Source: Candidatus Hodarchaeota archaeon (lineage in GTDB: Archaea; Asgardarchaeota; Lokiarchaeia; Sigyniarchaeales; SOKP01). Taken from it: a stretch of 10,857 nucleotides of DNA. Position 1 is the first letter of the stretch. Each line of letters starts with the position of its first letter. The stretch is from assembly GCA_048886685.1 (NCBI GenBank), contig JBHLKM010000005.1:1-10857 (forward strand), written 5' to 3'. This document shows, piece by piece, positions 7,889 to 9,130 of the stretch. The notes beneath the pieces were generated by a model. That model made no database searches. It was given only the letters and a program-made list of their open reading frames with translations, and was not told where the DNA came from. The position numbers and the translations under genes were made by a program.

Positions 7889-7895
7889 GAGTGAT
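7889..7895 (+). promoter_or_regulatory. Shine-Dalgarno-like GAGTGAT before radA
   Basis: Resembles the archaeal anti-SD complement (GGAGGTGAT) and ends 5 nt before ATG 7901. Confidence 0.55.
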
Positions 7896-7900
7896 ATTAA

Positions 7901-9130
7901 ATGGCTAAAGCCATAGATACAAAGGGCAAAAGTGAATTTATTGAAGGTCAAGCATATTATTGTCCTGAATGTAAAAGAACGCACACTAAGGGAAAGATTT
8001 ATAAAGAACACTTGAAGTATGCTCAAATGGAAAATTCAGAGGAAGAAGCAAATATTGATATCTATGACGATGAAGAAGAACTAATTGAGGCTTTTAATGA
8101 TTTAGAAGAAGAAAGAATTGATGAAATTGATATTCAATTAAAGGATGAAAAAGATTCTAATATTGATGGGACTGAAAACGACTCAAAAGATTGCGTAGAT
8201 GCCGTTAAAAAACTTCCTGGGGTAGGAGAAGCTACTTTAAATAAGCTTATTAAGGCAGGGTTCAATAGCCTTGAATCAATTGCATATACGCCACCCTCAA
8301 TAATTAAAGAAGAAAGTGGTCTTGGTGATAAAACTACTGAAAAATTAATTAAAGCCTCAATGACCCAGCTAGGAATTGGTTTTAAGTCTGCAGATGCAAT
8401 TTGGGAACACAGAAAAAATATTGCGCGGATTACCACAGGCAGTCATGAACTAGATGATTCCTTAGGAGGTGGTGTAGAGACTGGAAGTGTAATCGAATTT
8501 TTTGGAGAATTCAGAACGGGAAAAACTCAAATTACGCATCAACTTTGCGTAAATGTACAATTACCTAAAGAAAAAGGTGGTCTCGAAGGTAGGGCTCTCT
8601 ATATTGATACAGAAGGCACTTTTAGGCCAGAAAGAATAATTCAAATGGCCGAAGGGCTTGATTTAGATTATACTAATGTATTGAAAAATATTGTATTTGG
8701 GAGAGCTTATAATTCTGATCACCAAATTTTACTAATTAAAGAAGCAGCTAACATTATCAAAGAAAAAAACATAAAATTGATTGTTATTGATTCACTTATC
8801 GGACATTTTAGAAGTGAATATATCGGGAGAGGGACATTGGCAAACCGACAACAGACAATCAATTCTCATCTACATGACTTACTAAGGTTATGTGATATAT
8901 ATCCAGATTTAGCAATAGTTTTGACAAACCAAGTCCAAGCTAAACCTGATGTTTTTTATGGTAATCCTTTGCAAGCTGCTGGAGGAAATGTTGTTGCCCA
9001 TGGATCAACTATTAGAGTATATTTACGAAAAGGTAAAGGAGAACAGAGAATAGCCAAGATTGTTGATGCCCCTCACTTACCTGAATGTGAGGCTATTTTT
9101 AGTATTACAGAAAATGGGATATCAGATTAG
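7901..9130 (+). CDS. radA: DNA repair and recombination protein RadA (Rad51/Dmc1 family) with a ~100-aa N-terminal extension
   Basis: HhH N-domain ([17 protein letters not shown]), FxxA polymerisation motif (GFKSA), Walker [21 protein letters not shown], Walker B LIVIDS, L1 ([13 protein letters not shown]), L2 ([14 protein letters not shown]) and C-terminal DAPHLPE. Confidence 0.97.

Follow-up and report, generated by a model that had tools for sequence, protein, structure and literature searches.

A conserved Cys/His finger ahead of the RadA core in one family of Lokiarchaeia

The window analysed here is a stretch of 10,857 nucleotides from a Candidatus Hodarchaeota archaeon (contig JBHLKM010000005.1). 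The gene at positions 7901-9130 of its forward strand encodes a RadA paralogue of 409 amino acid residues (plus stop) with a small Cys/His finger near the N-terminus of the chain. RadA and Rad51 filaments normally depend on distinct mediator proteins for their regulation and targeting. A finger on RadA would make an accessory module part of the recombinase polypeptide, and this in the archaeal lineage that is closest to eukaryotes. The locus raises the question of whether this finger is a genuine part of the protein, to which family it belongs, and what it could contribute to the recombinase.

The RadA gene and its paralogues

The gene was identified from its translation and from family profiles. 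The RadA core consists of residues 100-409, and about 99 residues are added in frame ahead of it. The NCBIfam profile NF003301 matches with an E-value of 4.8e-135 (449.8 bits, with a cutoff of 259), and TIGR02236 is also above its curated cutoff on the 409-residue protein (429.8 bits, with a cutoff of 361). The domains and sequence motifs expected of a RadA were found at 7901-9130. The N-terminal helix-hairpin-helix (HhH) domain comprises residues 100-165 (positions 8198-8395, with HHH_5 at residues 101-152) and is followed by the RecA-fold ATPase core, residues 166-409 (positions 8396-9127, with PF08423 at residues 171-409, E 1.1e-94). Walker A, GEFRTGKTQ, is located at 8504-8530 and Walker B, LIVIDS, at 8777-8794. 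Inside the HhH domain is the FxxA motif GFKSA (8378-8392), which we take, from what is established for Rad51 and RadA, to be the polymerisation motif. Judging from this arrangement, the gene is predicted to encode a functional recombinase of the RadA/Rad51 type.

The initial annotation had spoken simply of RadA as the carrier of the finger. The finger-bearing protein is indeed a RadA, but it is not the only one, since the genome, like the genus as a whole, has three RadA-like genes: the finger form, a form of 335 residues, and a divergent form. The 335-residue RadA is 64-68% identical to the finger form; its copy in the window's own genome (G000:C18:58358-59296, minus strand), at 65% identity, has only a short MAKKK leader. 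The divergent paralogue (about 42% identity) has a C-terminal extension of about 100 residues and is located in the same genome at G000:C24:31423-32364 (plus strand). Two RadA copies, with about 55% identity, are also found in the other Asgard families sampled.

To relate these proteins, a rapid maximum-likelihood analysis (IQ-TREE) was made on 59 core sequences; it gives the sequence of events provisionally. Finger RadAs and short RadAs each fall in a group of their own, with support of 99 and 100, respectively. Within an order-level RadA clade that has full support, these groups are sisters with an SH-aLRT value of 87, which is not strong. The topology points to an origin of the two copies by duplication inside the family. 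The fusion of the finger with RadA is limited to one family of Promethearchaeia (Lokiarchaeia), in which one of the two recently duplicated RadA copies carries it, and most genera of this family have the finger version.

Translation and conservation of the finger

Forty related genomes were searched, and the reading frames were then extracted for a comparison of start sites. Full-length orthologues with 76-92% identity and 410-435 residues were found in 20 species of the genus. Their N-terminus MAKA, aligned to position 7901, is invariant, and a stop codon is located one to three codons 5' of the equivalent start. In three species, the start codon at this position is TTG or GTG instead of ATG. 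A Shine-Dalgarno-like sequence, GAGTGAT (7889-7895), is found 5 nucleotides upstream of the ATG, and its core GTGAT (7891-7895) is complementary to the 3' end of the 16S rRNA of the same genome, GGATCACCTCCT. Most orthologues have a GTGAT-like core at -10 to -6. Such a core is present at 8.2% of the long ORFs in the genome, compared with 1.4% in a background window. The pairing with the organism's own 16S rRNA lends modest support to the start at 7901, for which the initial annotation had cited the Shine-Dalgarno-like motif.

The finger spans residues 19-40 (positions 7955-8020), and this agrees exactly, in protein string and nucleotide position, with the 22-residue C-x2-C-x3-H-x8-H segment reported initially ahead of the RadA core. 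Among the 20 orthologues from the genus, Y19, C21, E23, C24, R26, H28, K30, G31, K32, Y34, K35, H37, and A41 are invariant; all four of the Cys and His residues C21, C24, H28, and H37 are thus retained, where a loss in orthologues had been named as an outcome that would speak against the finger. The segment is basic, with six Lys or Arg and two Asp or Glu in 22 residues. Pairwise dN/dS ratios, which have a relative meaning only because dS is near saturation, are 0.48 for the leader that precedes the finger (residues 1-18, positions 7901-7954, variable after MAKA), 0.087 for the finger, 0.55 for the acidic linker that follows, 0.073 for the HhH domain, and 0.040 for the ATPase core. By this measure, selection on the finger appears to be as strong as that on the HhH domain.

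It might be supposed that the finger-coding stretch is outside the mature protein, with translation starting at Met43 or later, or that the Cys/His pattern is a product of chance. An in-frame ATG for Met43 is in fact present at 8027, and start codons are often mis-called in archaea. However, the position of Met43 is occupied by Phe, Leu, Ile, Asn, Ser, or Tyr in the orthologues, while the 42 codons before it hold the invariant finger, and Met43 was rejected as the true start. The coincidence of the ATG, TTG, and GTG starts, with stops just 5' of them, and the low dN/dS of the finger also argue against an untranslated segment, and the ligands are invariant in more than 100 genomes. As for chance, the pattern C-x2-C-x3-H-x8-H has a single match, this RadA, among the 3692 ORFs of at least 100 residues (1.24 million residues) in the 4.4-Mb genome of 30.9% G+C, against a composition-based expectation of 0.05 occurrences. 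The comparative data already contradict both forms of this explanation, which we consider scarcely credible. The start at 7901 proposed in the initial annotation stands, and we hold with high confidence that the finger is a genuine domain of roughly 25 residues that is both translated and conserved. No second copy of the finger was found in the window's own genome, where it occurs only on RadA.

The finger is connected to the HhH domain by an acidic linker, residues 42-99 (positions 8024-8197), with 25 Asp or Glu and four Lys or Arg in 58 residues. The linker is variable in length and sequence, with a pairwise identity of 36%. It contains an acidic amphipathic motif, [YF]DDExEL[IM]EAF[ND]E[LI]E, at residues 55-70 (positions 8063-8110), in which E60 and F65 are invariant. 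Similar motifs are found in the RadA linkers of sister families, in a RadA with an HeH module described below, and in the non-RadA finger proteins P0039 and P0075. The version accompanying the finger in P0075 (181 residues) and P0039 (710 residues) is of the type YDDEExLxEAFxxxxEE, and in P0075 it is located before the finger, not after it.

Host proteins, putative ligands and predicted fold of the finger

The distribution of the finger was determined with a profile of the N-terminal region, which was run on 398 genomes of the phylum. It matched 125 of them, including 117 of the 132 in the window's own family (13 genera); the relatives compared are kin, so that these genome counts are not independent. 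A few matches came from two sister families; about 30 further families gave none. The N-termini of RadA frames of 410-460 residues account for most of the matches. A second profile, of the 34 positions of the finger, was compared with 1.84 billion cluster representatives and gave 191 at E<=1e-3, of which 27 were at E<=1e-10. The exact spacing of the ligands is kept in 142 of the best 150 representatives. The signature of the finger is P-Y-[YF]-C-x-x-C-x-[RK]-x-H-x-[RK]-G-K-[IV]-[YF]-x-x-H-x-x-[YF]. The Tyr at position -2 and the Gly at position +10 are present in 143 of 143 instances, although both are outside the pattern by which the instances were selected, and the helix stretch GKIY-x-x-H is nearly invariant across all of the host proteins. 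The finger is found at N- or C-termini, and twice in some proteins.

A search for other proteins carrying the finger, which the initial annotation had proposed as a check, was run with a positive result. The finger is N-terminal in P0150 (L181:4001-5242, plus strand, JBHLNK010000030.1), a protein of the Top6A/Spo11 family (PF21180, E 2.5e-53; PF04406, E 1.2e-18). It is an extra paralogue, about 50% identical to the regular Top6A of these genomes, which is without the finger. There is no recognizable Top6B beside P0150; the downstream gene encodes 403 residues without a Pfam match. The finger is also N-terminal in an AAA+ ATPase of 409 residues (PF00004, E 1e-25) found in two members of the genus (L064:1201-2427, plus strand, and L065:1305-2522, minus strand). 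At five loci (L061, L067, L054, L062, and L057), a finger protein of about 86 residues is encoded directly upstream of the TBP gene. In addition, the finger heads or ends ORFs of about 86-120 residues, a protein of 692 residues, and one of 1619 residues, so that its fusion partners include giant and many unannotated small proteins without a known DNA role.

Some features of these proteins may be recorded here. The protein of about 86 residues consists of the finger and a basic helical C-terminus (LRPIAKRQLxRLxKK). At one of the loci, its gene (L061:1650-1910, minus strand) is separated by 3 bp from that of TBP (L061:1018-1647, minus strand). The pair looks like a conserved two-gene unit in the relatives; the window's own genome lacks it. 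The large proteins of 692-1619 residues (L052:2529-7385, plus strand; L053:618-2693, plus strand; P0039; P0046; P0016) have in common a conserved domain of the type FKVNDYITLKLEGxKTNIYV, for which there is no Pfam match above cutoff. The finger is N-terminal in some of them and internal in L053.

The existence of other carriers establishes the appended finger as an autonomous domain, and the sequences place it in what appears to be an undescribed family. Its mobility between proteins is shown by these fusions. None of the models in Pfam passes its threshold on the finger, and no meaningful match for the finger proteins was found in PHROGs. The finger would define a compact zinc-finger-like family missed by Pfam, with a non-canonical ligand arrangement (C-x2-C-x3-H-x8-H), that is common to recombination, topoisomerase-like, and transcription-linked proteins. 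In the collection of papers searched, neither a RadA bearing a Cys/His finger nor the finger family is described. The nearest item is a preprint that reports canonical C2H2 fingers on Asgard TniQ proteins, which have other spacing (10.1101/2025.07.27.667033).

It is important to compare the finger with the known C2H2 fingers. The commonest weak match in Pfam is zf-met (PF12874), seen in 21 of 99 members with a best E-value of 2.4e-5; on the present RadA, it scores 16-18.8 bits, below the gathering threshold of 21.2. In this alignment, C21, C24, and H37 fall on the canonical C-x2-C-x12-H, and nothing in the finger corresponds to the last His of the profile. The C21-x2-C24-x12-H37 spacing is invariant in the 20 orthologues and in 143 further instances. 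No conserved fourth C2H2 ligand was found 3-6 residues after H37 in any context (residues 41-44 are Ala, Gln, Met, and Glu). H28 is aligned with position 10 of the zf-met profile, the conserved core Phe, and a His is present there in 143 of 143 instances. Because H28 is invariant, it is taken as the putative fourth ligand, and a single zinc is most likely bound by C21, C24, H37, and H28. Glu44 was considered as a fourth ligand of the C2HE type and was rejected; it is replaced by Lys, Ser, or Asn, or absent, in several orthologues and in non-RadA proteins.

AlphaFold2 was used to predict the fold, once with 37 and once with 99 aligned sequences. A beta-beta-alpha structure, a hairpin plus a helix, resulted in each case, with pLDDT values of 67 and 71, respectively, and this fold is proposed with moderate confidence. 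In a profile search of PDB sequences, only the first half of Krueppel-type fingers (EKPYxCxECGK; PRDM9, Aart) could be aligned. Foldseek with the 34-residue model found nothing in the PDB at E<=0.001, and the top rows (USP15 fragments, Sgf11, and C2H2 fingers) had E>3. VIA-align against 48,161 PDB chains gave a best Z of 2.8, and the UBZ, Sgf11, C2HR, and CHHC fingers had Z values of 2.0-2.6, which is at chance level; the UBZ matches are 3wup (Z 2.6) and 5vf0 (Z 2.2). Because the Pfam thresholds are missed, the final His is missing, and the structure searches are non-significant, the finger is best called C2H2-like and placed outside the curated C2H2 families.

The N-terminal slot and possible functions of the finger

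The segment ahead of the acidic linker differs among related RadAs. In sister families, the single RadA starts with a Lys/Ser/Thr-rich tail (MPAKKKKTSKAK... or MAKKKTTK...), beginning MAKKK or MPAKKKK, which is then followed by an acidic linker. In the same family as the window, a RadA of genus g21 (G197; L188:1495-2820, minus strand) with 74% identity has a Rho_N/HeH module instead of the finger. The match has an E-value of 2.7e-5, just under the cutoff, and is followed by an acidic motif as in the finger RadA, EYDDEKELIEAFEELE. In genus g12 (G174 and G176), the slot holds a second HHH_5 domain (L190:1498-2775, minus strand, and L193; E 1e-11), again with an acidic linker after it. Four unrelated modules, the finger, the Lys-rich tail, HeH, and HhH, are found in one slot of RadA, each with an acidic linker after it. 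Lys-rich tails, HeH motifs, and HhH domains are established nucleic-acid binders. Because the slot in relatives holds such modules, the finger can be read as an interchangeable nucleic-acid-binding module. The variants make up a natural series of domain swaps, usable for studying the role of an external DNA-binding site in nucleation, homology search, and capture of double-stranded DNA.

In RadA and Rad51, the N-terminal domain faces outward from the filament and is in contact with double-stranded DNA. For this reason, an additional external site for DNA or RNA is the most economical explanation. We favour, with somewhat better than even confidence, the proposal that the finger binds zinc and forms an extra nucleic-acid-binding site on the RadA filament that is not sequence-specific. 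Zinc would be held by the four ligands given above. The finger would be present on every protomer, at the outer face of the filament, and would bind DNA (or RNA) without regard to sequence, taking over the role of the Lys-rich tail, HeH motif, or second HhH of related Lokiarchaeal RadAs. The near-invariance of the helix face across hosts also suggests a generic ligand rather than base-specific reading. The acidic linker could be a flexible tether to the HhH domain and may damp or gate the basic finger; its motif, recurring in other finger proteins, hints that the two may work together. The initial annotation had described a nucleic-acid- or partner-binding module displayed along the filament, possibly a built-in mediator. 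The module displayed on the filament fits the swapping in the slot and may be kept as an interpretation; the role of mediator is so far unsupported.

The same helix face could, however, have another explanation. Small fingers of the beta-beta-alpha type are also known to bind proteins, so that a shared protein partner would account for the conserved helix face just as well. The finger could then be a recruitment tag instead of a DNA binder, and dock RadA, the Top6A/Spo11 paralogue, the AAA+ ATPases, and the small TBP-linked proteins on one partner. Candidates for this partner are a chromatin protein, RPA/SSB, or a ubiquitin-like protein, the last by analogy with the UBZ fingers of eukaryotic DNA-damage proteins. 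A near-invariant surface on unrelated hosts is what one shared ligand would produce, and the occurrence of the finger with an ELIEAF-type acidic motif, in either order, in P0039 and P0075 suggests a bipartite interaction unit. The top structural look-alikes, all non-significant, include the ubiquitin-binding fingers of Pol eta, RAD18, and NDP52, and Sgf11. However, at Z<=2.8 or E>3, these matches are at the level of chance for 34 residues, and what stands in for the finger in related RadAs (the Lys-rich tail, HeH, and HhH) binds nucleic acid. Docking on a common partner is in our view the chief rival to the favoured proposal, although we do not expect it to be correct. A stronger form of it is speculative, and we give it little credence: the finger could be a Lokiarchaeal address tag that directs a Rad51-like recombinase, a DNA-breaking paralogue of the Spo11/Top6A type, AAA+ ATPases, and small TBP-associated proteins to one platform, either chromatin or a ubiquitin-like modifier. 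If so, UBZ-type targeting, as found in eukaryotic machinery for DNA damage and meiotic recombination, would have an archaeal forerunner in this finger. It deserves attention that, in Asgard archaea, one and the same finger is borne by a recombinase and by a paralogue resembling Spo11/Top6A.

The finger could also act within the molecule. Together with the acidic linker, it might fold back, with the two parts bound to each other or to the DNA-binding surface of RadA, and keep the filament inhibited until displaced. Throughout the order, an acidic linker invariably comes after the basic module, the amphipathic motif of residues 55-70 is conserved, and the acidic C-terminal tail of RecA and the acidic tail of HMGB1 are established precedents. 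Such regulation leaves the finger on many proteins without an acidic segment unexplained, and it does not exclude DNA binding as a true alternative would. As the function of the finger, auto-inhibition seems unlikely. The external nucleic-acid-binding site remains our preferred explanation.

Residues 100-409 form a RadA as complete as the archaeal RadA and eukaryotic Rad51 and Dmc1 proteins, with HhH, FxxA, Walker A, and Walker B. In contrast to them, this RadA has an N-terminal extension of 99 residues with a Cys2His2-like finger and an acidic linker. The Lys-rich tail, HeH, and extra HhH of other Lokiarchaeal RadAs are found in the same slot, with the same type of acidic linker, and in the same RadA clade, but their folds are unrelated to that of the finger. 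A single small finger on a DNA-repair or chromatin protein, beta-beta-alpha as is predicted here, is also a feature of UBZ3 of Pol eta, UBZ4 of RAD18, Sgf11, and the CHHC finger of Gtsf1; the present finger differs from these in ligand spacing, has no sequence similarity to them, and reaches a Z of at most 2.8. With the zf-met, U1-like, and JAZ fingers (PF12874, PF12171), to which it is probably related, and the Krueppel C2H2 fingers (PF00096), it has in common the (P)Y-x-C-x2-C start of the hairpin, the C-x2-C-x12-H spacing of the first three ligands, and the predicted beta-beta-alpha fold. It differs from C2H2 fingers in that H37 has no His or Cys 3-6 residues beyond it, H28 replaces the core Phe, an invariant Gly-Lys precedes the helix, the finger is single, and the helix positions are constant between proteins. 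The finger RadA is a case of lineage-specific domain accretion, in which a known enzyme is combined with a new variant of a known fold.
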